From Actinomycetes bacterium (GTDB lineage: Bacteria; Actinomycetota; Thermoleophilia; BMS3ABIN01), in NCBI GenBank assembly GCA_021787475.1, contig JAJYLW010000009.1:7722-71721 (forward strand): DNA of 64,000 nt, read 5' to 3'. Shown piece after piece: positions 25,470 through 42,366 of this stretch; the first letter of the stretch is position 1; every line of letters begins with the position of its first letter. Both the position numbers and the translations under genes were made by a program. Below the pieces are notes generated by a model that saw only the letters and a list, made by a program, of their open reading frames with translations, was not told the origin of the DNA and did not search any database.

Positions 25470-25827
25470 TGGGGGCGACCTGGTTTCGACGGGGTCTATC
25501 TGGACGGGAGCAGCAAGCCGAGCTTCCGGCGGGCTCGTAAAACTGCCGGAAACCTAAAGTAAACGCAGACAATAATCTAGCGTTAGCCGCTTAATTTAAG
25601 CGGCTCATCGCCCCCGGCTGACCGCGGCCGGGACCAGCGGTGTCAGATAGCGGCCTATGCCGCCGCAGCCGCCTCTCGCCGCGGCGTGCGAAGCTTTAGA
25701 GAGGCTGGCAGACCGGATCCGGTCTTCGCGGAGCCGGCGCGCGAGACTTAAAAAGCGAAGACTAAGCTTGTAGCGGCTCCCCTTCGGGTGGCTTCGGACG
25801 CGGGTTCGATTCCCGCCGCCTCCACCA
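25470..25827 (+). ncRNA. ssrA: transfer-messenger RNA (tmRNA)
   Basis: 5' GGGGGCGACCUGGUUUCGACGGGG with a G3:U wobble acceptor. 3' T-arm/acceptor GGACGCGGGTTCGATTCCCGCCGCCTCCACCA. Internal tag reading frame GCA GAC AAT AAT CTA GCG TTA GCC GCT TAA, giving (A)DNNLALAA. A TATAAT -10 lies at 25436-25441. Confidence 0.95.
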
Positions 25828-25836
25828 TCATTCGCA

Positions 25837-25850
25837 CCTCTGAAAATGCC
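25837..25850. repeat. target-site duplication, left copy (CCTCTGAAAATGCC)
   Basis: 14 bp identical to 40535-40548, each directly abutting a terminus of the inverted repeats. Confidence 0.8.
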
Positions 25851-26307
25851 GGGGTATAGGGATGTGCAAAGCGTGGACCACCTGTGACAAATGATACTAT
25901 GTGTGCTGAACCCCTGCTCTTGCGAGGTCTTTTGATTCACCAGTAGGTCTATGTTATGGTGGCGGATGGTTGACTTGCGGCTTGCTAGTTGATACATAAA
26001 GATGTAAGTGCTAGTTTGGTAAGTCAGTGGGGTGAGTGGTGTTCTGGTCGCAACCGCAGGATATCGGGACTGGTTCAACTTCGCCTGCCACCAAGCAAGG
26101 CCCGCAGGTAGCCCGGTCTCTTCGGGTGCAGAAGCTTCGAGAAGTAGGGATTAGGTTGGCCGGGATAGCATTGGGCTGGTAGGCAATGCGTAGGACCAGT
26201 CTTGACCCCATTGGAGCCACCCCGTTCATGTCCAGGACGTTGCAGCTAGTCTTGTTTGACATCATTACATTTTGTAAGGTGATTGGAGCTACCCGCTCAC
26301 GACCAGG
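25851..26307. repeat. left terminal inverted repeat (TIR-L)
   Basis: Inner 115 bp (26193-26307) are about 98% identical to the reverse complement of 40135-40250. The terminal 40 bp match the reverse complement of 40495-40534. The middle part is more diverged and carries indels. Confidence 0.8.
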
Positions 26308-26355
26308 ATCCAAACCGCAATTTACTGTCCCAGGAAACCCGACCACATCTTTCCT

Positions 26356-26754
26356 CTATTTATTGAGGATCAAACAATAATCTTCCCACTTAAGATCCAG
26401 AAGAAATTGATATTTCTCTTCTAATTCTCTTGTACGTCCTTGAAAATATATTTCCCTAATATCATTGTCTGATAAATTCCTGAAATCGTTACAAATCGAC
26501 TGGTAATAAAGCTTCGATATTTCGTATTTATTGTCAGCTGGTTGAACAAAAAGAAGATTTTTAAAATCTAATATTAAAATCCAATAATCTATGAATCTTT
26601 CACCCGTTGCTTGGCTTAAAACAGAGATCAAAAGGTCTTTAATAAGACGTGACCAAGTGCATTTCCCCACAATGCAAACAACATAATGACCGACGGGTAT
26701 TTCATCCCTTGTGGCAATTTGAAGTTCACCATATTTTAAGCCCCGTGATTTCAA
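26356..26754 (-). CDS. hypothetical protein (AT-rich cargo)
   Basis: 132-aa ORF with low GC relative to its surroundings. Confidence 0.35.
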   Translation of the reverse strand: MKSRGLKYGELQIATRDEIPVGHYVVCIVGKCTWSRLIKDLLISVLSQATGERFIDYWILILDFKNLLFVQPADNKYEISKLYYQSICNDFRNLSDNDIREIYFQGRTRELEEKYQFLLDLKWEDYCLILNK

Positions 26755-26757
26755 CAG

Positions 26758-27426
26758 CTAAGATAAAGAAATCAAGCGCTGAACTAAAATAGGAGTGATA
26801 AGTCCCTCGATGAGACCTGCAATTATAAAAAGGAAAATTATTAAAGGAAATACTTTCAGGCTATGGTTATAAATTTCTTTTATCTTCTCTTTGAATGCTA
26901 CGTTATTCCTTTTCATCAAAATTGTCGGCGCTCTAAGGGTTAAACTTGTTGTCAGTATAATTGCTGGTACTTCAAATAATAGATGAGGCAAAGCTAATGG
27001 AAACAGATAACCATGAACACCAACACCCGAAATTAATCCCCAATTTACCCCCAGATCAAAGCCAATAATACTTGCTTTAAATAAACCCACTAAGGCAGTA
27101 ATTGGAATTGGTGAAGTCAACACTAAGAAAAAACTTGTTCCGACATTCTTAGAAATCGTCATATATGTTTGGGGCTGTTTATCCCAAGAATCATAAAAGC
27201 TACTAAGAATATTTCTGGTATCTTCCCTGGTTTGGTTTTGTTTATTATCAATATCATATGGAATATTGCCGGGCGTGTTAATTAAATTAATTGCTTCTTT
27301 TTGATTATTAATATTACTTATTCTGGCTTGAAGCTGACCGCTTAAGTATCCAAGAAATATGGTAACGAAAAATAAGATCCCAGCAATTATGATTAATATT
27401 CTATCTTGTTTGATAGCATGAATCAT
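26758..27426 (-). CDS. SpoIIM/DUF95-like integral membrane protein
   Basis: 222 aa with multiple TM helices. The C-terminal GVHGYLFPLALPHLLFEVPAIILT pattern resembles the DUF95/SpoIIM family. Confidence 0.4.
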   Translation of the reverse strand: MIHAIKQDRILIIIAGILFFVTIFLGYLSGQLQARISNINNQKEAINLINTPGNIPYDIDNKQNQTREDTRNILSSFYDSWDKQPQTYMTISKNVGTSFFLVLTSPIPITALVGLFKASIIGFDLGVNWGLISGVGVHGYLFPLALPHLLFEVPAIILTTSLTLRAPTILMKRNNVAFKEKIKEIYNHSLKVFPLIIFLFIIAGLIEGLITPILVQRLISLS

Positions 27427-27442
27427 TGTTAACTTCTAATTA

Positions 27443-27709
27443 TTACGAGAGTGAACTCAATAAATATTCTATCTGACTAGGGAGATCTCTTAATTCTTGC
27501 TGTACGGCTTTTTTATCCGCGTCAGGCAAAGCGCCGTAAGTATAATCATATATATCTTTTCCAATCTTATAAGAATTTTGAAGAGCATCCGGATTTGGGT
27601 AACATTGTTCTTCTTGTTCGGCGCATGCGGCCCTGTAATAATTTTCCTCCGGGAGGCATAACGGCGATTCTTCGCCTTCATTCGTCGGATTTTGACTCTG
27701 TTGATTCAC
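27443..27709 (-). CDS. small acidic Cys-containing hypothetical protein
   Basis: 88-aa ORF co-oriented with the neighbouring AT-rich genes. Confidence 0.3.
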   Translation of the reverse strand: MNQQSQNPTNEGEESPLCLPEENYYRAACAEQEEQCYPNPDALQNSYKIGKDIYDYTYGALPDADKKAVQQELRDLPSQIEYLLSSLS

Positions 27710-27814
27710 AGACCACTTCTAAGTCTATGATTCTACGAACTTAAGAACTAATAAAACCTGGCAAGCCATGGACTCAGAACATGAATGTGGTGGTGCTTAA
27801 ACTAGCATTCCCGG

Positions 27815-30778
27815 TCAGCCGATGACAACTGCGGTAAGGGCCTTCCGCAGCTTGTTCACTGTGGCTGCCCCAGGCTCAACTTTACCTGCCAGAAAACGCA
27901 GCACGGTACTGTGTGAAAGTCCTGCCGCCCGGGCCACTCTCCGCACTCCGTGCTTCCTGCAGACAATCGCCACCCGCTCTTGTAGCTCAGTGAGACTGCC
28001 GCCCGCTGCCCCGTACCTGATCTGCGCCTCTGGGTCCTCGCCGGTCAGTGAGCGTTCCTCCCAGCGATTGGCTTCCTTACCAATATATTGAATGCCGTTT
28101 ACGTCCGGCACCCGAATATGACGGCGGCGAAGCAAACCCGCCTCTGTGTAATCGCCGCCAATAAACTTCGTCTCCGGGTGCAGGTGGTAACGGACAAGAG
28201 CCTGTAGGTAAGTCTTGAGAAGCTCAGGAGTGACAGTCTCGCCAGTGTCCCGGTCAAAGCAATGCCTCACTGCAACTGCCGGGTCGGGATCAAAAGGTGA
28301 GACAGCCCGGGGCGATTGGGCCGTTTGCTGCCGCTTGTGCTTGCCGCCTCGGGAATCGAGTTCTACACAATTAAGCTGGGCGGCACTCCTGGCCTGATAG
28401 GCATTAAGAAAACCGAACGGGCGCACCTGCTGAGCATATGGCTTGCCCTTGTTGAAAGTGTCAAACCAGTGAAGAAGCCTCGGGCAGGTGGCCGCATAAC
28501 GGCTAAGCGCTACCGCGTCAAAGCCTGGCAGGCAGTCCAATTCGACTATCTGAAGGTGACCGGCAAGCGCTGCTTGGACAATTAGATACCAGAGATCATA
28601 CTGCCAGCGCTGAGTGCCAATCTCTAAGAGCGCCAGCCGGGGGGCTGGGACCCGGTCCGGCGCTTTCGCTTCCGGGTAGGGCGGCTGCAGGTGACCGAGG
28701 CCGTGGGCCGATGCCTTGCGCAGGACGGGCCTGCCGTCCGCGCCGATGTTAAAGAGAGCGTACCGCTTATCAGAGACTGCAAAGCAGTAAAGCGCTTCCG
28801 GCAGCCGGCCATCGAGGCTATAGTTCGCATCTTCCAGCTTGAACAGCTCGTCACCTGAGGTGTAGGGGTTAAGCTGTTCAAACCAGCCGCGTACGCGCTT
28901 AGTCCGCTTGTAAAACTCCTCCTCAGGCATACCCTGCGGGCAGGCCAGGGCCATGCTGTCGGTATCGCAAAAAGCCCAGCCGAGGCCCTCCTGCTCGGCC
29001 AAGGCCTCAACGACTCCCAGCATCAGCCGCGCCGCTCCCGTGGTCAGGGTGGCGAGCAATGGGTGAAAGTAACGGCCCGGCTCCTCAATGCTCGCCAGCT
29101 TCGCGGTACGCGGAGTCTCATCGCCGCCAAAGTAGACCTGTTCTTTCTGGCGGGCATAATCTTGCACATTCAGCTCGACGAAGATACCGTAGCAGCTGGA
29201 GTTGGCAACGATCTTCATCGCCAGCTGTTCGCTCGCCAGTCGTTCACGTTCTGATTCATTATTGCAGCTGCGCATCTGCTGCTTGACGCTGGAGCGCAGC
29301 TCAATCAATTTGAGGTAAAAATCATCCTTAGCGGGATCGATGCGGTAGTCAGGATTTCCCAAGATGTCAATCAGCTTTAGGCCCGGCTGCTGGCCCCGGG
29401 GGGTAAAGGCCAGCGCCCTGAGAATCTTCGGCGTCTTCCCAGTAAGCAGCTTGGAAACAAAAACGTCGGCCAGGGTGAACCAGAGCGGCTCTTTACTGGT
29501 CAGGTAATTAAGGCCGATCGAGTAGGCGGGGCTGCTATCGTCGTAGGCGCTACGCACCGGCAGGAGGTCAGCGTCTGCTTCGACCCGGGCGAGCACAGCC
29601 AGCTTGGCCCACGTCTCGGGGCGGGCCAGGTCGCTGAGCTTAAGGTTATCAACTATTGCTTGGGTCTCGGCGGTTGCTTCTCTCCAGTGGGCGCCGGTGG
29701 CGGTGACAAAGCGCCAGAGCCCCATGAGAACCGAGACAGTCGGGTACATCGAGAGAAAGTCGCAGTAGGCAACCTGAGAGACAACCCGCCTGAGGTGCAC
29801 TTCGGAGCGGCCGCCAAAGTAGCTTGCCATGATGATGCCTATAAGTTCGGGTGGTACGTCGGGCTGCAACTCGCGCCATGGTTTGACCCCCATCTCGCGC
29901 AGGCAGGCCTTGCCAATCGACGCCTCGCTCAGGATTGCCGAGACCGGTGTGGCGGCAAGCTTGAAACCCTCGTAACGGGCGGCGAGGAGCTGGGAGCACT
30001 CGAAGGTCACCTCAACGTCATTGCGCAGGTAGCCGAGGTAATTAGCGGTTAGCTCCCGGCCGTGTTCGGCCTCGGTCTTTTGATGTTTTGTGCCCAGCAA
30101 ACGGGCCAGTGAGGCCAGCGAATGCGAGCTGCCGGTCAGGGCAGCCGCCAGCGAGCGCACATCTGAAAAGAAGCCGCGCCTGGGGGGCCGCCGGTGGCGA
30201 CGCCGTCTCATGGAGCGGGCACTCCGCTGGCCGCCTGGGGCGGCGAAGTCGATCAGAGATGCGGTCCGCGACAGATGCTTGATGCGAACAGGCGGCCAGT
30301 TCTCGCTTAATGTCAGGGAGAAACCACCGCCCATCTTTTTACCCTTGGCTGGTCCATGCTTTATTGCCAGCCGGGAGAGGTCAAAAGGGAGATTGAAGCC
30401 GATAATCAGCGCATTTAACAGGTATGCCTGGCGGTAAAATATCGCCTCAATGAACTCGCTGACTGTTCTTAGCTTGAGGTCGTGGCGGCGGGCATAGCCC
30501 AGCAGGCGCCGGCGCTCTTTACTATTCAAGGCTTTTGGGTCAAAAAAGAGACCTTCCTCAACTAGTTCTTTCTTTTTGCGCAACTGGTAGCAACCTACCC
30601 GCAGCCGCTGCTCGGCGGTAGTCGTTGTCTCAGTATCGAATATGAGTGAGTAATCAGAAGGACCCAAGGGGGCGCTTCCCTCGTTGTTTGTAGTGGTCAT
30701 TTGACTGCCATTTCCGGTTTGTGGCACTGCGTAGGCACGCAGGGCGATTGGCTGCTCTATAGGTGCTGGCACTTTCAT
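27815..30778 (-). CDS. polB: family B DNA polymerase (casposon PolB) with 3'-5' exonuclease domain and C-terminal HTH
   Basis: Exo I IFDTETT, Exo II NLPFD, Exo III YLRNDVEV. Pol motif A DFLSMYPT, motif B KIVANSSCYG, motif C FCDTDSMA. C-terminal HTH (GLSHSTVLRFLAG). The start MKVPAP at 30778 overlaps the HNH gene stop (ATGA). Confidence 0.85.
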   Translation of the reverse strand: MKVPAPIEQPIALRAYAVPQTGNGSQMTTTNNEGSAPLGPSDYSLIFDTETTTTAEQRLRVGCYQLRKKKELVEEGLFFDPKALNSKERRRLLGYARRHDLKLRTVSEFIEAIFYRQAYLLNALIIGFNLPFDLSRLAIKHGPAKGKKMGGGFSLTLSENWPPVRIKHLSRTASLIDFAAPGGQRSARSMRRRRHRRPPRRGFFSDVRSLAAALTGSSHSLASLARLLGTKHQKTEAEHGRELTANYLGYLRNDVEVTFECSQLLAARYEGFKLAATPVSAILSEASIGKACLREMGVKPWRELQPDVPPELIGIIMASYFGGRSEVHLRRVVSQVAYCDFLSMYPTVSVLMGLWRFVTATGAHWREATAETQAIVDNLKLSDLARPETWAKLAVLARVEADADLLPVRSAYDDSSPAYSIGLNYLTSKEPLWFTLADVFVSKLLTGKTPKILRALAFTPRGQQPGLKLIDILGNPDYRIDPAKDDFYLKLIELRSSVKQQMRSCNNESERERLASEQLAMKIVANSSCYGIFVELNVQDYARQKEQVYFGGDETPRTAKLASIEEPGRYFHPLLATLTTGAARLMLGVVEALAEQEGLGWAFCDTDSMALACPQGMPEEEFYKRTKRVRGWFEQLNPYTSGDELFKLEDANYSLDGRLPEALYCFAVSDKRYALFNIGADGRPVLRKASAHGLGHLQPPYPEAKAPDRVPAPRLALLEIGTQRWQYDLWYLIVQAALAGHLQIVELDCLPGFDAVALSRYAATCPRLLHWFDTFNKGKPYAQQVRPFGFLNAYQARSAAQLNCVELDSRGGKHKRQQTAQSPRAVSPFDPDPAVAVRHCFDRDTGETVTPELLKTYLQALVRYHLHPETKFIGGDYTEAGLLRRRHIRVPDVNGIQYIGKEANRWEERSLTGEDPEAQIRYGAAGGSLTELQERVAIVCRKHGVRRVARAAGLSHSTVLRFLAGKVEPGAATVNKLRKALTAVVIG

Positions 30779-31287
30779 AGTTCGGCCCCCCGGCCAGTGA
30801 GCATGTTGGGAAGGCCCAGCGCCTCCCACCAGCGCGGCCCGTGCCGCTTGCGCATGCACTTTTCGAGTGCCTCAAGCCAGGCAATCACCGGAGCAAGAAG
30901 ACGCTCGGCGATCATCACCAGCCAGTCGCGGGCGCTGCGCAGGTTGGCGGCGGCCCGGAGCGCTGGACTACCCTCGGGGTTTCGGCGCGTCTCTTCGGGC
31001 CAGTCAACCTTGTAGTCATCCATAACGCGGTGGTCATTCGCGGCCATCGTAACCTCCATCTTTGGATTGTTTTTACGGCCGGCGGGGTGGTGGCGCTCTA
31101 CAGTGGAGCGCCCCTGCTGAGCGCACCTGTGCTCATAGCACTTGATATTGAGGTACGCGCCGGTCAGAGCCCGCCAATCACTCTCGCCGCAGCCGGGCAC
31201 ACTGCAGTGTGGACTCCGGGTGCCGAGGCGCTCGAAGGCATCTTCGGCGCGGGCCTCGGCGTTTGAGGGAAGTAACCTCTTTGTCAT
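30775..31287 (-). CDS. HNH endonuclease
   Basis: Cys-rich C..C ... ERHHPAGRKNNP ... pattern typical of HNH nucleases. Translationally coupled to polB. Confidence 0.6.
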   Translation of the reverse strand: MTKRLLPSNAEARAEDAFERLGTRSPHCSVPGCGESDWRALTGAYLNIKCYEHRCAQQGRSTVERHHPAGRKNNPKMEVTMAANDHRVMDDYKVDWPEETRRNPEGSPALRAAANLRSARDWLVMIAERLLAPVIAWLEALEKCMRKRHGPRWWEALGLPNMLTGRGAEL

Positions 31288-31306
31288 CGCTATCTCCTTT
31301 TTGTTG

Positions 31307-31888
31307 TTAAGCTACGATTTTGTAGACGTCCTGGAAGGATTCTGTCTGGGTTTCGGTAAGCCGGTAAAGGACGTTTTCGCGTGTCTCAAAAGGGTGGAAC
31401 TGGCCGCCGGCGTCCATCACCCCCTGGCCGGCGAACTCTTTCAGGGGAGCGGGGTCGTTACTGTCGAGAAACTGTCCCACTGCCGCCATATAGCGGCCTG
31501 CTAGTTGGGCCGAGTCGTAGTCGGGCAGAATGACGATCAGTTCACGCCCACGCGAGTAGATAAGCATCTGGCGCCGGCGAGCATCGGGGCCGACCTTCCA
31601 GCGGGCTTGCTCCTTGCGCCCTACGCCGGTGCGCACCAGGTAAGAGCGCAGTCGCTCAGGGGCGACGTGCAGGCGCCTGGCGGCGGCTGAAAGCGACTCG
31701 TCCTCGCGCACCTGCTTAAGCCCTTCTTCAAGCTCAGGGTCCCACGGGCGCGCTTTGATGATCTGGGACGTGTAGGGTTCGTGATGACGAGGATGACCGC
31801 GGGCCTGGGAGCGCGAGAGTCCCTTCGCTTGCCCGCGTTTGATCCGGCGGGCATACTCGCCTTTGTAGTCGCGCTTGCGGCGGGCCAT
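31307..31888 (-). CDS. hypothetical basic protein
   Basis: 193 aa with an Arg/Lys-rich N-terminus, in the polB operon. Confidence 0.4.
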   Translation of the reverse strand: MARRKRDYKGEYARRIKRGQAKGLSRSQARGHPRHHEPYTSQIIKARPWDPELEEGLKQVREDESLSAAARRLHVAPERLRSYLVRTGVGRKEQARWKVGPDARRRQMLIYSRGRELIVILPDYDSAQLAGRYMAAVGQFLDSNDPAPLKEFAGQGVMDAGGQFHPFETRENVLYRLTETQTESFQDVYKIVA

Positions 31889-31942
31889 CAGGACTCACCG
31901 CCCGCACCTTGCGTTGACAAGCACTGACCATTGCGATAGTAG

Positions 31943-32776
31943 TTACTCAAGACGAACCTCCCGCTTATAGGTGGTGGAGTTTGTCGATTGGGCCTGTGCG
32001 GAGGTGGTGCTCCGCACGGGCCGTTTTTTATTGCTCGGGCTGCCTCGCTGGCTGGCCTGCCCGCCGCGCTTGGGATGAGGCTGTGGTTGCCGTGAAAGTC
32101 GCCAGCGCCAGCTAGGATCGAGCACGTAGGCGTAGCGGTGTTTGGGCGGGCTTTTGCGCGCGACGATGGCCAAACCGGTGCGCCTAAGGTGAGCGACCGA
32201 GCCCGTGCCGAACCTGCCGGAAGCACTGCGGGGATGGATGCGAACGCCGTTAAGCTCGAAGTAGCGCTCCGGCTCGGTGGCACCGAGGTAAAGCCAGCCC
32301 GCGGCCTGGTAGATTGTCCCCACATGACCGGCGGCCGGGTCGGCGAAGCTCACGAGCAGCTTGTAGCTGCCCTCTCGGCGCAGCTTGCGCAGGATCAGTG
32401 AGAGCACCCGGCTTTCGTTATTGGGCGGCAGACCGTCGGCCATCCAGAAGCGGGCCAGGGTAGCGACGTCGGCGGGACGTGCCCCGGCCAGCAGGTGGTG
32501 GGCCTGGCGGGCACCGGCCGTGAAGACGCAGGCGCCCACCAGCTCGGAGCCGAGGTTCACGGTGTAGCAGCAGCGAACGACACCCGGCATTGAGTGCAGG
32601 TAGTGACACTTAACGACGAGGCTGCGCACGGCTGCGGCAGGCACGCGCTTAACCCGCAGGCTGCGTAATATGGAGCGGCCGGTCGGGACTCGAACCCGCG
32701 CCTCCTCGCTGGTGGGGCGAGGCGTCCTGCCATTAGACGACGGCCGCAGGGGATGCGCTGGGGGTGCAGGCTTCAC
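31943..32776 (-). CDS. putative GNAT-fold Mom-like DNA-modification protein (tentative)
   Basis: Motif pattern HYLHSMPG...ELVGACVF...LVSFADPAAGHVGTIYQAAGWLYLG recalls Mom-like acyltransferases. This is from memory and no search was run. Confidence 0.3.
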   Translation of the reverse strand: MKPAPPAHPLRPSSNGRTPRPTSEEARVRVPTGRSILRSLRVKRVPAAAVRSLVVKCHYLHSMPGVVRCCYTVNLGSELVGACVFTAGARQAHHLLAGARPADVATLARFWMADGLPPNNESRVLSLILRKLRREGSYKLLVSFADPAAGHVGTIYQAAGWLYLGATEPERYFELNGVRIHPRSASGRFGTGSVAHLRRTGLAIVARKSPPKHRYAYVLDPSWRWRLSRQPQPHPKRGGQASQRGSPSNKKRPVRSTTSAQAQSTNSTTYKREVRLE

Positions 32777-33618
32777 GCCTCGGTCACCTCACAGCCGAGT
32801 TCTTCGGCCACGGCCAAAACGTTGCGCGATCTGGTGGCAAGACGCTCTGCCAGCTCGGCGGCTTCTTTGCCTCCGAACACAGCTCTTAAGGCCTCGGCTG
32901 CAGTGGAAGCGGTTTCCCAGCCCTCGAAGCTCTCGCCGTCATCCAGGGCTACGGCAAGGCGCTTAAAGTAGTGCGCCAGGCGGCGCTGCTCGCGGCGCTC
33001 TTTGGCCGTAAACAAACGGTCAACAAGGCTCTCCTGCTCGGCGGGTAGCTCACCGCGCGGGCGAGCAGACGGCGGCGTAAAGGCAACACCGCTGCGACTG
33101 ACGCGCTGCTCGGTTACCGGGATTGTTGCCTTGACTTCCAGTTCTTGCCGCAAACCTGCCACGGTCGTCGGCGAGAGGGCCGTTAGCCGGGCAACCTCCA
33201 GATTGGAGACGGCGGCGTTGTCCTTAAGCAGGCGCTCGGCTTCGCCGCGCCGATCGGCGAGCGTCAGCGGCCGGCCGTGAACGGTATTGAGGGCAAAGGC
33301 CAAAGCTCGCAGGTCGTCGCCTGCGGGTAGTTCGTGAACCGCGACAGGGACTTTTTCGAGGCTGAGGTTTTGCGCGGCTGCGTACCGGTGGAAGCCATCG
33401 ACAAGCACATAACCGCCACGCTTAACGACGATAAGAGGCGGCCAAGCCTTGGGGTTTTCCTCAAGGGCTTGGACGTGACCATAGTCCAGTCCTGCGATGC
33501 GTGGCTGGAGGGTGGGATCGACGAGAATGCGCCCCAGGGGCAGGTCAATGGTAGTGGCAATCTGTGTCTGCATATCATTCACACCTCTTCTGCAATTGGG
33601 TTGTATTTCAATTTTCAT
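32773..33618 (-). CDS. ParB-like nuclease (ParB/Srx N-terminal domain) protein
   Basis: The N-terminal domain carries the ParB/sulfiredoxin catalytic-loop signature (LIVVKRGGYVLVDGFHRYAAA). First gene of the minus-strand operon ending with polB. Confidence 0.55.
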   Translation of the reverse strand: MKIEIQPNCRRGVNDMQTQIATTIDLPLGRILVDPTLQPRIAGLDYGHVQALEENPKAWPPLIVVKRGGYVLVDGFHRYAAAQNLSLEKVPVAVHELPAGDDLRALAFALNTVHGRPLTLADRRGEAERLLKDNAAVSNLEVARLTALSPTTVAGLRQELEVKATIPVTEQRVSRSGVAFTPPSARPRGELPAEQESLVDRLFTAKERREQRRLAHYFKRLAVALDDGESFEGWETASTAAEALRAVFGGKEAAELAERLATRSRNVLAVAEELGCEVTEA

Positions 33619-33705
33619 GGCTATGTTTTGCCATACCGGCGAGCGAATGCCTAGAGTCCCGAAGAAGTCGATACGGTTCGCGATAGGGTGTAAAATGAAT
33701 CAATA

Positions 33706-34896
33706 ATGAATGAATACGTGACAGATGAGGATGGTCATACAAAAAGGGAGCTGCTTGAACTGGGCCGCCAGCTTGGGGCCAGCGAGAAGCAGTTCGACCG
33801 TTGGCGTCGCGCACAGCTCCTACCGCCCCCAATCAGTCATCGCTCGCTTGGCCGCGGCAAGGGGTCCGTGTCGATCTATCCGCCTGGCACGTCAAAGCAA
33901 CTACGTCGCCTGTGCGAGCTTCACTGCGCGCCGTCGCTAATCAAGAAGGAGCGGCGTCTCCTGTTCCTTGCCTGGAAGCTCTGGTGGGAGGGTTACGATA
34001 TTCCGGCTTTGCGCGTGCGCGAGTTTCTTGCCAAGCACGTCGTGAACAGCTTCGACAGCGACGTAGAAGCAGCCCGCGCGATGAGCCCCGAGCAACGCCA
34101 GGTGACCGTTCACGAGTTGGCAACTAAACCGCTCGGCCGGCATCCGGGGCCGCTTGGCAAGGCACGCGGCCATTTACGGGGCAACATGCGCGACTTCCTC
34201 GCACTCCTCTTCACGATGGTCGATGGGAACGTAATCACCAGCGACCCAGAGAGCTTGCGGTTGCTGGAAAAGGCGAGCGGCTTGGAACGGGGACGCACAG
34301 ATACCTGGTGTGGTCAGCCTTTGCTCACCGATGAGAAGAATCACATCCCAGACACGATCGTTGCTGCTCTAATGCCCCTGCTGGATGGATCGTTGACACA
34401 ACGTGTCGAGCAGATGAGCGATGCCGAGCTTTGCGAGGCACGCCAAACCGCGCAGCGATGGTGGAATGGTGTCACCGTGATGGCTCGCTTTGGCCGAGAC
34501 GCGAGGGGCAAGGGCGGGTTTGGTCTGGGCGACTTTCTCTACGCGCCTAGCAATCCTCGCGAACAGGCAGCTTGGTGCCTCATGTTCGGCATGTTAAACG
34601 AAGCCGCGACCAACAACAGCGCGGTGGCGGACATCTTTCGCACCTTCTTCACCGCGCTTGAGACTTTTGCCGCGAACTATCCATTGGTGGAGGCGGGCCG
34701 CGAGGTCGAGCCGTTCCGTGAACTGCTCAGCCCTGCGCGAATCGAACAGGTGACTGCCGATCCCGACAAGATGCCTGAACATCTCCGCGAAATTCGCCGG
34801 ACAAGGTTCCACAAGCCGGATGCAGCAGAGGCATTTACAAGAGCGATAGTGGCAGCCCAGAAGCGGCTGGATGATAAGACGAAGGGGAACTTCTAA
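33706..34896 (+). CDS. hypothetical protein (possible N-terminal HTH)
   Basis: 396-aa ORF divergent from the ParB-like gene and immediately upstream of cas1. Confidence 0.4.
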   Translation: MNEYVTDEDGHTKRELLELGRQLGASEKQFDRWRRAQLLPPPISHRSLGRGKGSVSIYPPGTSKQLRRLCELHCAPSLIKKERRLLFLAWKLWWEGYDIPALRVREFLAKHVVNSFDSDVEAARAMSPEQRQVTVHELATKPLGRHPGPLGKARGHLRGNMRDFLALLFTMVDGNVITSDPESLRLLEKASGLERGRTDTWCGQPLLTDEKNHIPDTIVAALMPLLDGSLTQRVEQMSDAELCEARQTAQRWWNGVTVMARFGRDARGKGGFGLGDFLYAPSNPREQAAWCLMFGMLNEAATNNSAVADIFRTFFTALETFAANYPLVEAGREVEPFRELLSPARIEQVTADPDKMPEHLREIRRTRFHKPDAAEAFTRAIVAAQKRLDDKTKGNF

Positions 34897-34959
34897 CAAC
34901 AACAAACGCCCCCGCGACGCAGCCACGTCCGGGGGCATGGCACACGGAGGTAAGTCCGC

Positions 34960-36351
34960 ATGCAGAAACATGATACACCCACCGCCGAACGTCTCGACGG
35001 CCGCCGCAGCGTCGAACGCGATCCCCGCATCTGTCAGAACTGCGGTTGTGAGTTTATCCCCAAGCGTCAGACCAAAGGACTCTTCTGTTCTGTCCGTTGC
35101 TACCGCCTCTGGTGGGGTCAAAACGGTCAGGCAGAAGCGTCAAAGAAGGGACTCGCCAAGCTAGAAGAGCTGCAAGCGGCCGGTAAAGACCCCCGTGCCA
35201 GCCAGCAAGCAACCTGGAAGCGGCGCATGGCTTTTCGCAACTCGGCCCTGACGATGGCTGAAGATGAACACGAAACCGACGATTTCCTGTGGGCTGAGCG
35301 AGGCCAATACTGGCAAGAACAGGTTGAACCCAAAGCTAAGAAAGTAATTTCGTACCGTCGCCATGAGCGAAAGCCCCTCATTCTTAACGGCCACGGCCTG
35401 CGAATGCATGTAAATTATGGCAGCCTCGTTGTCAGGCACGGCTTTACACACTACCCGCAGGCAGCGCGTGAGCAGAGGTTCTTTCCAGGCGATCCCAAAC
35501 TTCCGAGCCGCATCATTCTTCTTTCTACAAATGGATCACTCTCGCTTGACGTGGTCCGCTGGCTTTCCGAGCAGCGCGTGTCACTTGTGATGCTGGACTA
35601 CCGGGGGCGGGTTGTAAGCGTCCTTGGTACTGAGACTACGTCTGCCGATCTTGCCCTACGGCGGGCACAGATCGAAGCTATAACCAACGGACGCGGGCTT
35701 GTGCTTGCTCGCTCGCTGATTGAGCAAAAACTTGCGGCTTCGATTACAACCCTGGAGACTCTGCCAGCATCGGAAGTAAAGGAATCCGCGATTAAACGCA
35801 TTACGGCTTTGCTTAAACAGCTACAGGCAAAACCGCCCCAATCAATCGATGACCTGCGTCATCTTGAAGCTTGGGCAGCGATCCCTTATTTTGGTGCATG
35901 GCGGGCGGTTGAGCTTCGTTGGAAGGGCACGGCAAGGAAACCGATCCCTCCAGAATGGAGACGCATTGGCGTGCGCCAAGACTTCCTCCGGCGGACGAAC
36001 CGTCATGCGCACCACCCGGTAAACACATTGCTTAACTATGGCTACGCCTTGCTCGAAAGTCAGGTGCGCATTGCGCTTGCTGAGGTCGGCCTCGATCCAA
36101 CGATCGGCTACCTGCATGTCTGTCAGGCGGGGCGGGATTCTTTTATCTACGATCTTATGGAGCCCTATCGGCCGGTAGTGGACCGCGACGTGCTTGGGTT
36201 TGTCAGGTCGCAGACCTTTACGCCCAGGGACTTCGTGATCGATAAAAAGGGGGTGTGCCGGCTTCATCCAGAGCTGGCACGGCTGGTGGCGTCGCTCGCC
36301 TCTGAAGCGGTCGCTTCGCTGCAGCTTGAGATAGGCACGTTGAGGGAATAG
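34960..36351 (+). CDS. cas1: Cas1-family integrase (casposase) with N-terminal zinc ribbon
   Basis: Cas1 hallmarks HPVNTLLNYGYALLESQVRIALAEVGLDPTIGYLH and RDSFIYDLMEPYRPVVD (catalytic His and Glu). N-terminal CQNCGC...CSVRCY ribbon. SD GGAGG is 9 nt upstream. No cas2 or CRISPR repeats are present. Confidence 0.85.
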   Translation: MQKHDTPTAERLDGRRSVERDPRICQNCGCEFIPKRQTKGLFCSVRCYRLWWGQNGQAEASKKGLAKLEELQAAGKDPRASQQATWKRRMAFRNSALTMAEDEHETDDFLWAERGQYWQEQVEPKAKKVISYRRHERKPLILNGHGLRMHVNYGSLVVRHGFTHYPQAAREQRFFPGDPKLPSRIILLSTNGSLSLDVVRWLSEQRVSLVMLDYRGRVVSVLGTETTSADLALRRAQIEAITNGRGLVLARSLIEQKLAASITTLETLPASEVKESAIKRITALLKQLQAKPPQSIDDLRHLEAWAAIPYFGAWRAVELRWKGTARKPIPPEWRRIGVRQDFLRRTNRHAHHPVNTLLNYGYALLESQVRIALAEVGLDPTIGYLHVCQAGRDSFIYDLMEPYRPVVDRDVLGFVRSQTFTPRDFVIDKKGVCRLHPELARLVASLASEAVASLQLEIGTLRE

Positions 36352-36644
36352 CAGCTTGCAACTCGCACTGCAGCCCAAAGAGATCTGCAATCCTAACTTG
36401 ATGAGTGCTGCTACCGGGTTCAACCCGCGAAAACAAAGAATCGATCTCTTCATCAGGGTTTGAACCGTTGCGCCCGTTTCACAGAGCCGTTAACATATGC
36501 ACAATTAACTGTTTCCTAATGGAATTGGATGATCAGTTAAACAATTTATCAAGAATTGTTTTTAATTGGCAGTGATATATTTGCAGGTAAGCGACTCCCG
36601 GCTCCAATGATGTGAAGTCCGTCAAACTCGAATGAGAGAACTAG

Positions 36645-37202
36645 ATGGCCAAAACAAAAAGAAGACTCTTCCTCGCCAGCGCTACAATTCTTGGCGTGGG
36701 CGTTGGAGCCGTGTTCGGGTCCATCGCCTTCTCCGCCCATCATGATGCTGGGAAAGGTCCAGTCATCTCTGACCAAACCGACATGCTTAGCACTAAAATA
36801 ACGCCAGCGAGCGCCACTGGCTACCTGACAAGTGTGGCAGGTAAATCCTGGGTCATATTCCTGGACCCCGCTGGCGGAACCGTTGACGCCACCAGTTACT
36901 CTAACGCCGACACACTTGGCAACGGTGGAGAGGTAAAGGTGAACGTCGAACATGGAACTGTCTCCGGCTACGGCGAGACAGTTGATTTCATTGGTATCAA
37001 CGTGGCAGGGCTTAATTCCTGCCCATGTCGAGCGCTCACCGACGGATCAAACTTGCAAATCCTGATTCCAACCAAAAACGAACTGCTGGAGACGCTCACT
37101 TTCTACCCGTCAAGCGTCGCCGCTTACAACAGCGCAGTCTCAGGGTTGAACGCGAGAGCTGCACGGGTCAACCAAGACCGCCAGCATGGAGCCAATGATT
37201 AA
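36645..37202 (+). CDS. secreted protein with twin-arginine (Tat) signal
   Basis: KRRLFLASATILGVGVGA N-terminus. 185 aa in the AT-rich segment. Confidence 0.45.
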   Translation: MAKTKRRLFLASATILGVGVGAVFGSIAFSAHHDAGKGPVISDQTDMLSTKITPASATGYLTSVAGKSWVIFLDPAGGTVDATSYSNADTLGNGGEVKVNVEHGTVSGYGETVDFIGINVAGLNSCPCRALTDGSNLQILIPTKNELLETLTFYPSSVAAYNSAVSGLNARAARVNQDRQHGAND

Positions 37203-37346
37203 CAAAATCATTATATGAGGGAGTTTCACTCTCATGATTTCAACCTCTATTCTTTAGTGTCAGCTATTCAGGCTAGAACAAGGTATATACATATCCGGAG
37301 CTAGTTGATATTATCTTTATTCGTTTTTTTTGTCTAGTGCCGGGCG

Positions 37347-38429
37347 GTGATTACATGGATCATCAGTTGCTTGCCGGTTGCCTTCAGCCAATGCATAACT
37401 CTCAACTTATCTTTATTCCTTTCCGCGGAGGTTTCAGCCAAAATGTCTATTTTTGATGGATTTCGTGGAGCGGATTATTGGATTAAGAGGGGCAAGGAAG
37501 CAGCTAACAATTACAACTTCGAAGCTGCAAACGCTTGTTTTAAACGAGTCCTTCAAAAAGAACCCGAAAACCTCTCGGCTTTATTTAAGAGTGCTTCTTG
37601 TCACATTGAGAATAACCAACTTGGGCAAGCGCTTGAGCTAATCGATAAATGCATCAAACTTGATCCCGCGAATGTCCTTTATAAACAGAAGAAAGGTAAG
37701 GTTCTTGAAGCCCAAGAGAACTACGTGGATGCCATCAAATGGTATGAAACAAACATCGCCGAGAAACCAGAAATTTTACAAGTGTGGTGGGGACATAAGG
37801 CTTTATGCCTGAAGAAATCTGGGAAGCAAGCTGAAGCTGTAGAATGGCTAAATGAATGTTTGGACGAGGATCCAAATTTTGACTTTGGATACTATCTTAT
37901 TGCGAATTTCCTTCATGATGAAGAAAAGTATGATGAGGCGGTGAGTTTCTATGAGAGAGCCGTAAGCCTGCATGGTGAAGCCGAGGGACCATCATTGCTC
38001 AATATGGCCGATTGCTTTGTTAATCTTGACAAAGATAATAAGGCAATCTCTTGCTTGGACATCGTTATTGATAAAAATCCTGAGCATCCAGCAGCATGGC
38101 GTGAAAAAGCCTTCATGTTAGAGAAACTTGGACACTCTGAAGAAGCTATCACTTGCTTTGACAAATTAATTTCCCTTACACCGAAATCGGCCAGCTCCGG
38201 CCCAATGGGCATCGGATGGTATCTGTGCCACAAAGGAGATTGCCTTCAGAAACTGGGGCTTCTAAGTCAGGCCCACGATTGCTTTATCGAAGCATCCAGA
38301 ATTGATTTCATTTTAGTCCAGGCTCATATTGCCTCCAAGTCGGAAGCAGAGCTGTCAGAAATAGGTTTTGCACAGACTCCTATAACTAACCTGAGTGAAA
38401 ATCAGTTCAGATACCTGACGGGAAGGTAA
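37347..38429 (+). CDS. TPR-repeat protein
   Basis: Multiple tetratricopeptide repeats. The real start is probably MSIFDGF at about 37443. Confidence 0.6.
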   Translation: MITWIISCLPVAFSQCITLNLSLFLSAEVSAKMSIFDGFRGADYWIKRGKEAANNYNFEAANACFKRVLQKEPENLSALFKSASCHIENNQLGQALELIDKCIKLDPANVLYKQKKGKVLEAQENYVDAIKWYETNIAEKPEILQVWWGHKALCLKKSGKQAEAVEWLNECLDEDPNFDFGYYLIANFLHDEEKYDEAVSFYERAVSLHGEAEGPSLLNMADCFVNLDKDNKAISCLDIVIDKNPEHPAAWREKAFMLEKLGHSEEAITCFDKLISLTPKSASSGPMGIGWYLCHKGDCLQKLGLLSQAHDCFIEASRIDFILVQAHIASKSEAELSEIGFAQTPITNLSENQFRYLTGR

Positions 38430-38631
38430 ACATGGGTCTTTTTAGTAAATTCTTAAACCAACCAAACAGAGACAAATCTGAAGAATTCAACCTTAGAGCA
38501 TGCCAGCTAGAAGGTGATGATAAAATGACATTAGGCCAGGATCATTAGCAAGCGGAGATAACAAAGGTGGCATTAGTCTTTGGGACGTGAAAGATCTTTT
38601 CTAGGGTTGCTACCAATGAGGTCGTGATCAA

Positions 38632-38934
38632 ATGAAAAGGCTGATTTACATTTTGTTAACCTTTTTGCAGCTTCCGGCGGTTTTAATGGTCGGGGCATTA
38701 AATATCGTTGAAGGTCTATTCGTGGCGAGCGGATGTATCGGTTTTTTGGTTATAACCATTACCTTAGGCGTCGTCGGGGGAATTATTTTCGTTTTCGGGA
38801 TGGTTTTGTTGTTTGGCTTGGTCAGAGCGGTCATGATTCCATACGTCAATCTTCTTGAAAGGGTAAAAATGAATCTCAAAAGTAGCCCAAAAATAAAAAA
38901 TATGAATGAGTATCTATTTGAGGATGAGCGGTAA
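38632..38934 (+). CDS. small membrane protein (2 TM)
   Basis: 100-aa hydrophobic ORF. Confidence 0.35.
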   Translation: MKRLIYILLTFLQLPAVLMVGALNIVEGLFVASGCIGFLVITITLGVVGGIIFVFGMVLLFGLVRAVMIPYVNLLERVKMNLKSSPKIKNMNEYLFEDER

Positions 38935-39000
38935 TCAATCATCGTAATCTATGCCGTTTGGCCCAAAATCAGGTTTTCTAAATGGCTTAAAATATTAACC

Positions 39001-39043
39001 TCAGAGTTCGAATACCGTTGCACCGCCCCCATCATCATCAGCT
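39001..39043. repeat. degenerate copy of a tRNA/tmRNA-like 3' end (remnant junction)
   Basis: CTCAGAGTTCGAATACCGTTGCACCGCCCCCATCATCATCAGC is near-identical to 42367-42410. A degenerate R-type TIR terminus (ACAGGTGGTCCACAAGTTGTACATCCCTAT) lies at 39278-39312. Confidence 0.5.
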
Positions 39044-39394
39044 CTTCACCAAGACCCGAGGGTGGCCGCAGAGAGTAGACAGCTATCAATCCGATGACCC
39101 CTATCACGAGCAGAATGATGTCCTTCTTCATGATTTCCCTCCGGTCATGTGATTAAATACGTAACAATTACAAATTGCACATGCGTGTTATTAAGGACAT
39201 AAAAAATACTCCTGAGTGGATATCAAAGTCAATCAATCGGACTGCGACACCCTGGCGGGGTAGCTCAAAGGGAGGGTTACAGGTGGTCCACAAGTTGTAC
39301 ATCCCTATTTTGCCATCAAAAAACCTGTTATTAAGATATTTTTTGAAAGCAATATCGTAAACACTAGGGGCTTCGCACTTTTGGGAAAAAAAAA

Positions 39395-39979
39395 TTATTC
39401 CGAAGCAAAGAAGATATTGTCTAGATCGATGTACTTGTCAACCAATATTGGTAGTCGCTTACTGAGGCCAATTGAAAATGCCGCTAAAAATATGTTCTTT
39501 CCGTTTCGTATCACCTCCTCAATTATAGGAATATAGTCGCCATCGCCCGTAATCAAATATGCTGAATCAAAGTTATCGTTGTATAAATGGTGCAGAATAT
39601 CGATTGTCAGCTTTATATCGACGCCTTTTGCCTTATCTGTCTTTCTAACCTTTTTAAAAATACAAGGTGTCAAATGATTTGGTTTAAACGAGTGTGAATA
39701 TTTGTCAAAATTAAGCTGTTTTATTTCTCTCTCTACATGTTCTATGCGGCTATTATCTCCACTTAAGGATGTATACAGAGTGGCTCTAATTATTTCGTGA
39801 CCCTCATGTGAAATAGCTTCTTTTTTCCAAACATACACATCGTGCTCATGAACAACGTCTGTCTTAGGATTAGATCCTTTATTTAACAGGTGCTGATATC
39901 TGAGCACCATATTTTCACCATCTATAAAAATCATCATTCGCCCTGCGTTAGGGGCAATAGGTCCTCGGTGTAGCATCAT
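39395..39979 (-). CDS. NYN-domain (LabA-like PIN-fold) ribonuclease
   Basis: IFIDGENM...DIKLTIDIL...YLITGDGDYIPIIEE pattern of NYN/LabA domains. Confidence 0.6.
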   Translation of the reverse strand: MMLHRGPIAPNAGRMMIFIDGENMVLRYQHLLNKGSNPKTDVVHEHDVYVWKKEAISHEGHEIIRATLYTSLSGDNSRIEHVEREIKQLNFDKYSHSFKPNHLTPCIFKKVRKTDKAKGVDIKLTIDILHHLYNDNFDSAYLITGDGDYIPIIEEVIRNGKNIFLAAFSIGLSKRLPILVDKYIDLDNIFFASE

Positions 39980-40134
39980 TTTGTTCTAGTCTCCTTACAT
40001 TAAGAGTTTCCGTTAAAGGTCCAGCAGGGCAAAAAATCAGACCAGCGCCTCGCCGAAGATATTTTTAAAAAAAAATTGTGGCGGTTTTTCACTGAAAGAA
40101 AAGATTAAACGAAAATTCCACTCGGTGGCAACGT

Positions 40135-40534
40135 CCTGGTCGTGAGCGGGTAGCTCCAATCACCTTACAAAATGTAATGATGTCAAACAAGACTAGCTGC
40201 AACGTCCTGAACATGAACGGGGTGGCTCCAATGGGGTCAAGATTGGTCCTGTGCATTGCCTCCCAGCCAAATGCTCTCCCAGCCAACCTACTCCCTACTT
40301 CTAGAAGATTCTGTACCCGAATCAGCCTGTGTATCAACTAATAACGAAGACCTCTTTAGTCAACCACATGAACCAAAAACCCCGATAGCGGGATTCAGGC
40401 ACCTCGTATCACTTATCAAGTATTTTAGTTGATAAATAAGTTGTGGTTAGCCAGGACCAGAAGGCGATCGGAAATTGATATTTCTTTGTAACAGTTGTCA
40501 CAGGTGGTCCACGGAATGCACATCCCTATACCCC
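40135..40534. repeat. right terminal inverted repeat (TIR-R)
   Basis: Reverse complement of TIR-L. Ends ...GCACATCCCTATACCCC and is followed by the TSD. Confidence 0.8.
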
Positions 40535-40548
40535 CCTCTGAAAATGCC
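40535..40548. repeat. target-site duplication, right copy (CCTCTGAAAATGCC)
   Basis: Identical to 25837-25850. Confidence 0.8.
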
Positions 40549-40711
40549 TTGAACAAGGCATTTTCCAATGCCCGATATCGTAACAAGCCGGCGGGAATCG
40601 AACTTTCGTTCCCGCAACTCTCATAAAAACGCGAAGCCAAGCCTTATTTTTGGTTGGTGGAATGCTGGCAAATCCGCGGAAGCATTCATAAGATGCCTGC
40701 ATGAAGATATA

Positions 40712-41059
40712 ATGGCTTTCAAAGGGAGCTTCATGGGGAATCTGACAATAAATGAGAAAAAGGCCTTAACTGATTTTCGAAATGTCCTTGTGGCGGACTT
40801 CGGGGCGCTGGACGTTCGTCTTTTCGGATCTCGCGCGCGCGGAGAGGGCGACGAAGAATCGGATCTGGATGTCTTCATCGTCATTCCCAAAATCGACTGG
40901 GCGCTGGAGAAAAAAATTTACGGCCTTTCTTTTGATATCAGTCTGGAACGCGGTGTATTAATTTCTCCGATTCTATACTCTCAGAAGGATATCGAAAATC
41001 CATCCATAATGATTTCGCCTCTTTATAAGACGGTTCAGCGGGAGGGCATGAAGATTTGA
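40712..41059 (+). CDS. minimal nucleotidyltransferase (MntA-like antitoxin)
   Basis: GSRARGEGDEESDLDVFIV, the GSx10DxD NTase motif. Overlaps the downstream HEPN gene by 4 bp. Confidence 0.7.
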   Translation: MAFKGSFMGNLTINEKKALTDFRNVLVADFGALDVRLFGSRARGEGDEESDLDVFIVIPKIDWALEKKIYGLSFDISLERGVLISPILYSQKDIENPSIMISPLYKTVQREGMKI

Positions 41060-41448: not shown

Positions 41449-41683
41449 ACGGAATAATCCAGAAGTGCGGAAGGCACTAAGAGCCTGATAAATGGCGAAT
41501 CACAAGATAAAACACAGACGTTATTACTCAAGTTGCGCTCCCTGCAAACCTGATGAATTCTTTCGTACACGTAAGAATAAATACGGCGAAAGATACCGTG
41601 GGTACAAGCAATGGCACACAAGCGAAAAGGACAACTAACCCCCGCGCCCCAATGGTGGAAGCACCTCCGCGATTGGAAGCGGG

Positions 41684-42308: not shown

Positions 42309-42366
42309 ACCCCTAATCAATCTGACACGAAGGGATTACCCGCAACAACCGCCTCAAAATATTAAG

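Follow-up and report, generated by a model that had tools for sequence, protein, structure and literature searches.

A very probable casposon of the bacterial kind beginning 23 nucleotides beyond the tmRNA gene of a Thermoleophilia bacterium

Introduction

What kind of mobile element has settled directly behind ssrA, the transfer-messenger RNA (tmRNA) gene, of a Thermoleophilia bacterium, and how is that position recognized? The question arises from a 64,000-nucleotide (nt) stretch of an Actinomycetes bacterium (contig JAJYLW010000009.1, positions 7,722 to 71,721), referred to here in its whole length as the window. A first-pass annotation, made from the letters of the DNA, had proposed a casposon, a transposon that combines a Cas1 homologue free of other cas genes (Cas1-solo) with a family-B DNA polymerase (PolB), long terminal inverted repeats (TIRs) and a target-site duplication (TSD) of 14 bp. 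The affinity of the Cas1, the alignment of the TIRs and TSD, and empty sites found in related DNA all support that proposal, and the 14,684-bp segment from 25851 to 40534 is very probably a casposon of the bacterial, family-3-like kind.

Knowledge of casposons, including those of bacteria, dates from 2014. The bacterial family, family 3, comprises NitAL212-C1, HenMar-C1, StrAlb-C1 and AceAut-C1 (PMC4046053, PMC4779613), and all bacterial casposons have been described as inserted within intergenic regions (PMC4779613). We read the segment studied here as a casposon because it is bounded by TIRs and an exact 14-bp TSD, its Cas1 is nearest to a casposase, its polymerase has a family-B fold, no integrase was found among the scanned open reading frames (ORFs), and the window holds no CRISPR array. 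The element starts 23 nt past the CCA end of ssrA, a distance that recurs in its relatives.

Results

Termini and target site

The ssrA gene that anchors the target site (25471-25827, plus strand) was called by ARAGORN and matched the Rfam tmRNA model at full length (183 bits); its tag peptide is ADNNLALAA. The CCA end is followed by a 9-nt spacer (25828-25836, plus strand), which is also 9 nt long in the relatives designated L002 and L071, and then by the 14-mer CCTCTGAAAATGCC (25837-25850), which abuts the left terminus of the element. A second copy (40535-40548) abuts the right terminus. The two copies are exactly identical over 14 bp, as the first-pass annotation had claimed; at fixed positions the chance of such identity is 4^-14, or ~4e-9.

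The left TIR (25851-26308, plus strand) opens with the terminus GGGGTATAGGGATGTGCA, a motif conserved in several phyla, and the right TIR (40134-40534, minus strand) ends ...TGCACATCCCTATACCCC. Their outer blocks of 47 nt (25851-25897 and 40488-40534) are 89% complementary, with the outermost 18 nt the same at both ends, and their inner blocks of 188 nt (26121-26308 and 40134-40321) are 94% complementary, with the innermost ~118 nt almost identical. The long inverted repeats described in the first-pass annotation therefore hold, on computed alignment, as an outer and an inner block; the portion between these blocks, which is weighed below, does not pair. The 3' ends of the element read ...CTATACCCC-3', or in longer form ...CATCCCTATACCCC-3'.

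In the host, ssrA is followed by an 11-bp hairpin whose 5' arm is the 14-mer, and the right copy together with 40549-40566 makes up the post-ssrA hairpin of empty sites. The hairpin is supported by folding (ΔG -15.1 kcal/mol, z -4.5); a simple terminator scan left it uncalled, the T-run being too short in the source genome. It is dispensable, as is shown by the insertion in the relative L072 and by those at tRNA genes.

The Cas1 protein

The candidate casposase is a protein of 463 amino acids (aa; 34960-36351, plus strand) consisting of an N-terminal Cys4 zinc ribbon and a Cas1 domain (Pfam Cas_Cas1, E 1.7e-48) in which the motifs NYGY..GLDP..GYLH and DLMEPYRP are seen. Its best match in the PDB was 6opm, at 1e-30 with the single sequence and at 2e-40 with a 31-sequence family profile; 6opm is the casposase of Methanosarcina mazei (PMC6977970). 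The catalytic residues E303, H386 and D398/E401 are invariant in the family, and the zinc-ribbon cysteines C25, C28, C43 and C47, which lie in an N-terminal extension of 135 residues, are conserved. The protein terminates ~20 residues past the Cas1 domain and hence lacks the C-terminal helix-turn-helix (HTH) of family-2 casposases.

By sequence, this Cas1 is nearer to the Cas1 proteins of PolB-linked islands than to those of CRISPR systems. The Cas1 encoded by a PolB-Cas1 island of Nitrosomonas ureae is 36% identical to it (E 2e-60) and those of loci in Nitrosomonas metagenome-assembled genomes (MAGs) are 44-46% identical, whereas the Cas1 proteins of plasmid CRISPR systems do not exceed 34% identity, which is confined to the Cas1 domain, and match at E 6e-19 or weaker. 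Nitrosomonas is the genus of the reference element NitAL212-C1. No CRISPR-like repeat array was found in the 64-kb window, and no cas2 among the ORFs scanned, which were those between 23.7 and 47 kb. The Cas1-solo assignment of the first-pass annotation is borne out by these searches, in which a casposase came closest.

The polymerase and its coupled partner

The second core protein is a 987-aa polymerase with a C-terminal HTH (27815-30778, minus strand), assigned by motifs and fold to family B and to the primer-extending class. Its exonuclease motifs Exo I-III (D48/E50, N129/D133 and Y250/D254) and its Pol A, B and C residues (D340/Y345; K522/N526/Y530/G531; D605-T-D-S608) are invariant in 28 homologues, so that the earlier description of these motifs as intact stands. 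Matches to sequence families were weak (Pfam DNA_pol_B, 3e-5; PHROG DNA polymerase, 1.2e-10). Against the PDB, the single sequence drew matches at E ~0.1 at best, and a profile built from 6 sequences drew none; because these searches were uninformative, folds were compared instead. An AlphaFold model (predicted local distance difference test score, pLDDT, 84; predicted template modelling score, pTM, 0.83) was searched against the PDB with Foldseek, and all top matches were family-B polymerases (E 7e-14 to 1e-11), the top 50 including Pol alpha, archaeal PolB (9°N/KOD/Pfu/Tgo) and E. coli Pol II. The predicted fold thus confirms the protein as a divergent family-B polymerase of the primer-extending class. 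The protein is 34% identical to the PolB of the N. ureae island over 933 residues (E 6e-141), and it had no match among phage records. A C-terminal HTH like the one seen here has been described for family-2 PolBs (PMC4046053). In this the protein agrees with family 3, whose polymerases are related to those of family 2 and are RNA/DNA-primed, not protein-primed.

Translationally coupled to the polymerase is a conserved 170-aa protein (30775-31287, minus strand), whose ORF overlaps the PolB start by ATGA. The first-pass annotation had called this partner an HNH nuclease. The coupling holds; the HNH identity was confirmed neither by profile nor by structure nor by fold. Residues C28, C33, H67, N84 and H86 are invariant, and a distant homologue in the relative L079 carries a CxxC..HH..N..CxxCH pattern with a weak match to Pfam HNH (E 0.023). 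The protein of the window matched nothing in Pfam (E up to 1), in PHROGs or with a profile against the PDB, and its AF2 model, of low quality (pLDDT 74, pTM 0.37, and below 50 in the motif region), found nothing in Foldseek. It is possibly a degenerate HNH nuclease.

Relatives, empty sites and mobility

Counting Cas1 homologues at E up to 1e-10 and PolB homologues at E up to 1e-5, we found at least 600 of the former and at least 2,717 of the latter, mostly in metagenomes and MAGs. Bacterial casposons had earlier been called rare, which is untrue of metagenomes: they are frequent in MAGs of several phyla from soil, freshwater and bogs. Among species-representative genomes the Cas1 family occurs in Actinomycetota, Chloroflexota, Dormibacteraeota, Nitrosomonas, Acetobacteraceae, Armatimonadota and others, the best match among GTDB species representatives being 66% identical. 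Relatives at 64-80% Cas1 identity share one gene order, namely PolB, the 170-aa protein, a 193-aa protein, Mom, ParB, a variable protein and Cas1, and Cas1 with PolB is found in the same order in L002, L072, L076, L078, L079 and L024. Their cargo varies and includes putative AbiC, type IIG and type I restriction-modification genes, and proteins with a TIR domain (the protein domain, not the repeat).

Three independent relatives occupy the same position behind ssrA, in both orientations and with differing duplicated sequences. In L002, a Thermoleophilia MAG (Cas1 80% identical), the ssrA CCACCA is followed by TTGTTCGCA plus CCTCTGAGAATGCC and then GGGGTATAGGGAT, and the orientation is opposite to that in the window; the locus was covered over 21 kb, with the far end of the element lying beyond. 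In L071 (Cas1 80%), also opposite, the CCACCA is followed by TCATTTCCC plus ACAGAAAAAATGCC and then GGGGTATAGGG. In L072-L075 (Cas1 70%), oriented as in the window, it is followed by CACTGCCAT plus TTTGATACCGTTCTT and then GGGGTATAGGGAC. L071 holds a complete 9.6-kb element that has lost PolB and has an IS1595 transposase inside it; its host is related to that of the window (tmRNA 92% identical, left flank syntenic at 76-81%), and its 14-bp TSD is unlike the window's in sequence. The TSDs of the other complete relatives measure 15 bp (L072) and 14 bp with one mismatch (L006).

A pattern matching only unoccupied sites returned five metagenomic contigs, of which L080 and L082 carry genuine ssrA genes. 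In both, ssrA and the spacer are followed by a single 14-mer and the downstream hairpin, which is the empty-site configuration expected in the first-pass annotation of a related genome lacking the element. An empty site reconstructed from the two flanks of the window aligns across the junction with these contigs, at 86% over 443 nt and at 82% (L080, L082). Mobility of the element lineage is supported by these sites.

Pile-ups of casposon ends, in which a right end is followed by 14-15 nt and then by a left end, were seen at 15442-18816 in L072-L075 and at 14725-14741 in L014. They are tandem insertions sharing a TSD, as in Methanosarcina. In the host flank of L079, at 16919-17001, lies a c-di-GMP-I-GGC riboswitch (62.7 bits) that is unrelated to the casposon.

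A fixed distance from the ends of tRNA-like genes

The terminus GGGGTATAG(G/C)GA is conserved in Cas1 relatives across several phyla. It stands 23 nt away from the CCA end of tmRNA in three cases (the window, L002 and L071) and 24 nt away in L072. Beside tRNA ends the spacing, counted from the CCA, is again 23 nt, at tRNA-Ile (L005), at tRNA-Ala (L021) and at a tRNA-Val-like end (L018). The sequences duplicated at these sites are mutually unrelated. The casposase of M. mazei clamps a 14-bp duplex target and needs ~30 bp of upstream tRNA sequence for specificity, and the end of its casposon, TATATCCC-3', resembles ...CTATACCCC-3' here (PMC6977970). By analogy, the simplest reading is that, for the casposase of this lineage, a tRNA-like gene's 3' end would act as the leader, with integration 9 nt further on and a 14-15-bp stagger. 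Among the papers searched, none linked casposons with tmRNA.

The ParB/tRNA-like/Mom module and other genes

Between PolB and Cas1, the core holds three further genes and a small RNA gene on the minus strand. A conserved 193-aa protein (31307-31888) has the same position in L002, L071, L072, L076 and L079. It is followed by a Mom-family DNA-modification protein (31943-32776; Pfam Mom, 9.1e-43; PHROG Mom-like, 1.6e-40) and by a protein with a ParB N-terminal domain (32773-33618; PHROG ParB-like, 5.7e-14; Pfam ParB_N weak, 1.5e-3). Embedded in the 5' end of the Mom ORF, just downstream of the parB-like gene, is a tRNA-like gene (32674-32747) with a cloverleaf, the anticodon CAC and C at position 33; the true start of Mom is probably just 3' of it. 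This gene scored 44.3 bits (E 1e-6) against Rfam tRNA, having been missed by ARAGORN and by the initial Rfam gathering scan and detected only in a narrower Rfam scan. It is kept in L002, L004 and L072 at a mean identity of 87%, and the consensus folds as a cloverleaf. On the plus strand, a 396-aa protein upstream of cas1 (33706-34896) is conserved in position and variable in sequence, its equivalents in relatives having 209-390 aa. Neither it nor the 193-aa protein, the two weighed as counterparts of the conserved HTH protein that families 2 and 3 have in common, belongs to any family in Pfam, PHROGs or PADLOC.

The usual reading of Mom is protection of DNA from restriction, and the ParB/tRNA-like/Mom module would accordingly serve, probably, to protect the DNA of the element. 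It may be speculated that the dedicated tRNA takes part in the chemistry of Mom modification. The first-pass annotation had called the gene complement unusual. In the ssrA islands of Dehalococcoides, a ParB-domain protein is followed by a Mom homologue whose first 150 bp contain a conserved tRNA-like gene of ~76 bp, and this trio belongs to the "integration module" of islands that move by CcrB-like serine recombinases (PMC3146451). The module was thus already known, and what is new is its presence in a casposon core. Because the Dehalococcoides islands and the casposon carry the same trio, two mechanistically unrelated kinds of ssrA-targeting element share this module.

The seven core ORFs are all intact and retain the conserved catalytic residues, and each core gene occurs only once in the window. 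The core has a host-like guanine-plus-cytosine (GC) content of 0.60 (flanks, 0.59-0.62), and the end cargoes have 0.36 and 0.43. The left cargo (26356-27709, minus strand, GC 0.36) encodes a 132-aa protein, a SpoIIM-like membrane protein (26758-27426; Pfam SpoIIM, 1.9e-15) and an 88-aa protein, and has no nucleotide match in relatives. The right, low-GC cargo (36645-38934, plus strand) encodes a 185-aa protein, a TPR protein (37347-38429) and a 100-aa membrane protein; beyond it lies an NYN-domain (LabA-like) nuclease (39395-39979, minus strand; Pfam NYN, 5.2e-17; PADLOC NYN, 1.8e-11).

Surroundings of the ssrA locus

What lies between the tRNA-Val/Glu/Lys cluster and the right TSD, earlier viewed as plain host sequence, proved to be an ssrA-type cassette followed by the remnant of a second casposon. 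The cassette, which lies outside the casposon (40549-42389, plus strand), contains an inverted T-arm-like fragment, an MNT/HEPN toxin-antitoxin pair (40568-41448) and small ORFs. A second, 12-nt repeat of the ssrA end, a 9-nt spacer and a third copy of the 14-mer follow (42390-42424, plus strand), and then an 88-nt solo TIR fragment (42425-42512, plus strand) that matches the L071 left TIR over 83 nt at 97.6% identity. Altogether, 42390-42462 repeats 25816-25888, the first 53 nt identically, and covers the ssrA end, spacer, 14-mer and TIR terminus. Judged by its sequence, 42425-42512 is a solo TIR, all that is left here of a second casposon related in type to L071.

Just upstream of the 42390 repeat, a boundary repeat (42353-42389) recurs in L071 and, decayed, inside the casposon. 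It is present in one to three copies each in L081, L083 and L084, and after each copy come the ssrA end, spacer, 14-mer, hairpin arm and inverted T-arm-like fragment. A cassette boundary is composed of a pseudo T-loop, CCGCCTCCACCA, 9 nt, the 14-mer, the hairpin arm and the inverted T-arm-like fragment. L084 has three such boundaries in 4.9 kb; L071 has a cassette array at 2715-3483, with a large serine recombinase at its end. In this lineage, then, ssrA is trailed by tandem small cassettes with ssrA-end boundaries, an arrangement that resembles that of Dehalococcoides (PMC3146451), and each boundary recreates a potential casposon target. The second casposon may have used a cassette boundary as its target or may have been moved there by a later cassette.

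The decayed boundary repeat within the element (38986-39047, plus strand) is 90.6% identical to 42353-42405, and an independent short assembly, L001, breaks exactly within it. An internal third TIR terminus (39276-39308, minus strand), 85% identical to the left terminus and without its last 5 nt, sits 240 nt after this repeat.

Two further observations concern the flanks. The 3' half of the ssrA T-arm (25802-25821) has an inverted copy at 40586-40603, which in the empty-site configuration would lie ~75 nt past the gene with the hairpin between them; L071 and the two contigs with empty sites, L080 and L082, also keep this copy. It was considered as a copy of the tRNA-Val end and rejected, being part of the conserved sequence downstream of ssrA. 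A 72-nt near-perfect palindrome (42507-42578, 83% self-complementary) lies between the solo TIR fragment and tRNA-Val.

Discussion

Alternative readings

Several points weigh against taking 25851-40534 as an autonomous casposon of family 3. The middle portions of the TIRs are unrelated between the ends, the central third having diverged; together with the internal terminus at 39276-39308, this may mean that the mobile unit is a fused composite. The C-terminal HTH missing from this Cas1 is essential in the M. mazei casposase (PMC6977970), and the HNH identity of the polymerase's partner is unproven. The closest empty sites are only 82-86% identical and come from other species rather than from the same population. 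Membership in family 3, which is probable, was judged on sequence through N. ureae as a proxy and through published descriptions. One rival proposal is that the segment was a casposon in the past and has since become an immobile fossil, or that two tandem casposons have fused into it, with boundaries that do not delimit an autonomous unit. Decay is evident in L071, with PolB lost and IS1595 inserted, tandem arrays are known in relatives, and the region 38986-39308, where an internal terminus follows a decayed ssrA boundary, may be a scar from such a fusion. Opposed to this are the perfect TSD and the outermost 18 nt shared by both ends, the seven intact core ORFs with their catalytic residues, and the fact that no inner-TIR block precedes the internal terminus. 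We consider a fossil or composite unlikely.

Integration by a site-specific recombinase of the ssrA-island type, with the 14-mer as part of an attachment (att) repeat, would suit a locus where ssrA, a classic integrase target, is accompanied by direct repeats of its own 3' end and by a cassette, where the array of L071 ends with a large serine recombinase, and where the element carries a module typical of Dehalococcoides ssrA islands (PMC3146451). Yet no recombinase or integrase was found among the scanned ORFs of the element, and the repeat that borders the TIRs measures exactly 14 bp, all of it downstream of ssrA, whereas the cassette boundaries repeat the ssrA end itself. The 14-15-bp repeats of relatives are moreover unrelated in sequence, stand beside tRNA genes as well, and occur with elements in both orientations, so that this origin is very improbable. 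Even less credible, to the point of being negligible, is that the Cas1 is the remnant of a CRISPR adaptation module beside an unrelated polymerase. The Pfam label "CRISPR associated protein Cas1" and database names agree with that idea; the lack of a CRISPR array in the window and of cas2 among the scanned ORFs, the pairing with PolB in the same order in the six relatives named above, the casposase as best solved relative and the low identity to plasmid CRISPR Cas1 proteins all speak against it. A pipolin was rejected on three grounds: no integrase or recombinase was found, there are TIRs rather than only direct repeats, and the PolB fold is primer-extending. A prophage was likewise rejected, given no integrase and a PolB without a match in phage records.

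A model of insertion

Under the casposon reading, insertion can be pictured by analogy with the casposases of Aciduliprofundum boonei and M. mazei. The Cas1-family casposase would attach the element by its 3'-OH ends (...CTATACCCC-3') to both target strands, 14 bp apart, and gap repair would yield the 14-bp duplication. To pick its target, the enzyme would recognize the 3' end of a tRNA-like gene (ssrA in this case) and cut a set distance away; ssrA is left intact, because the duplicated segment starts 9 nt past its CCA end. The N-terminal zinc ribbon may have a role in site recognition, again by analogy, and the element's primer-extending PolB presumably copies the element. Low-GC cargo (NYN, TPR, SpoIIM) is carried along at both ends.

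More tentatively, and with somewhat less confidence than an even chance would warrant, we suggest that the element represents a large, uncatalogued bacterial lineage that reads the 3' ends of ssrA, tRNA-Ile, tRNA-Ala and tRNA-Val with a 9-nt offset and a 14-15-bp stagger, and in which the zinc ribbon replaces the C-terminal HTH. Its nearest subclade would have captured the ParB/tRNA-like/Mom module, which elsewhere is known only in ssrA islands with serine recombinases, a hint that the Mom-like enzyme works with its dedicated tRNA, possibly in an aminoacyl-tRNA-dependent DNA modification.

Relative to the literature searched, four features are new: a bacterial lineage with a gene-anchored ssrA/tRNA target at a set offset, a casposase with this domain architecture, a core that includes the ParB/tRNA-like/Mom module, and the lineage's abundance. 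The element and its relatives supply the inputs for an assay: defined ends (...CTATACCCC-3'), a defined target (the last ssrA or tRNA bases plus 23 nt), natural target variants of other sequence at the same distance, and a different architecture of DNA-binding domains. How a Cas1 integrase measures distance from a leader-like sequence, which domain reads the leader, and how such targeting evolved towards recognition of the CRISPR leader and repeat are thereby made testable. ssrA emerges as a landing pad common to two mechanistically unrelated kinds of mobile element that exchange the ParB/tRNA-like/Mom module.

Comparison with known systems

The fit to family 3 rests on the N. ureae backbone, the primer-extending PolB fold, the C-terminal HTH of the PolB and the N-terminal zinc-binding domain of the Cas1. 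A contig of N. ureae has the same backbone without Mom or ParB, in the order PolB, two small proteins, a 301-aa protein and Cas1, and an N-terminal zinc-binding domain has been reported for the Cas1 of NitAL212-C1 (PMC4046053). Shared with that family, too, are the bacterial host, the pairing of Cas1-solo with a PolB of this type, TIRs, a TSD of ~14-15 bp and a small downstream protein in the HNH position. The differences are that the published elements are intergenic with no gene-anchored target (PMC4779613), whereas the present lineage lies 23 nt from tmRNA and tRNA ends, that the Cas1 here is without a C-terminal HTH, and that the core adds the ParB/tRNA-like/Mom module.

With the archaeal family 2 (AciBoo-C1 and the M. 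mazei casposons; PMC5137440, PMC6614799, PMC6977970) the element shares a 14-15-bp TSD, targeting guided by tRNA 3' ends, similar 3' termini (CTATACCCC-3' as against TATATCCC-3' in M. mazei), tandem insertions and solo TIRs, and family 2 provides, in 6opm, the nearest structural relative of its Cas1. In family 2, however, the TSD overlaps the last 4-7 nt of the tRNA, whereas here it begins 9 nt beyond the CCA end; and the family-2 Cas1, from archaeal hosts, has an essential C-terminal HTH where this one has an N-terminal zinc ribbon instead.

The Dehalococcoides ssrA islands (PMC3146451) resemble the casposon in their ssrA target, their tandem build-up downstream and the arrangement of the ParB/tRNA-like/Mom trio. 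They differ in integrating by CcrB-like serine recombinases (DsiA/DsiB) inside the ssrA T-loop, in being bounded by 20-bp direct repeats of the ssrA end with no TIRs, Cas1 or PolB, and in having a tRNA-like gene that is Gly-like, the casposon's being Val-like. The neighbouring cassette (40549-42424), unlike the casposon, does have ssrA-end direct-repeat boundaries.

Pipolins (PMC11551731) are likewise self-synthesising bacterial elements that carry a PolB and defence cargo and lie beside tRNA or tmRNA genes; they use tyrosine recombinases and direct att repeats in place of TIRs, TSDs and Cas1, and their piPolB is primer-independent. A parallel in strategy is offered by Tn7, at attTn7 downstream of glmS. 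Tn7 relies on an unrelated DDE-type transposase and the targeting protein TnsD, makes a 5-bp TSD and carries no polymerase, and like the present element it reads a conserved essential gene, inserts just downstream of it without damage, and through reuse of the site builds up islands.

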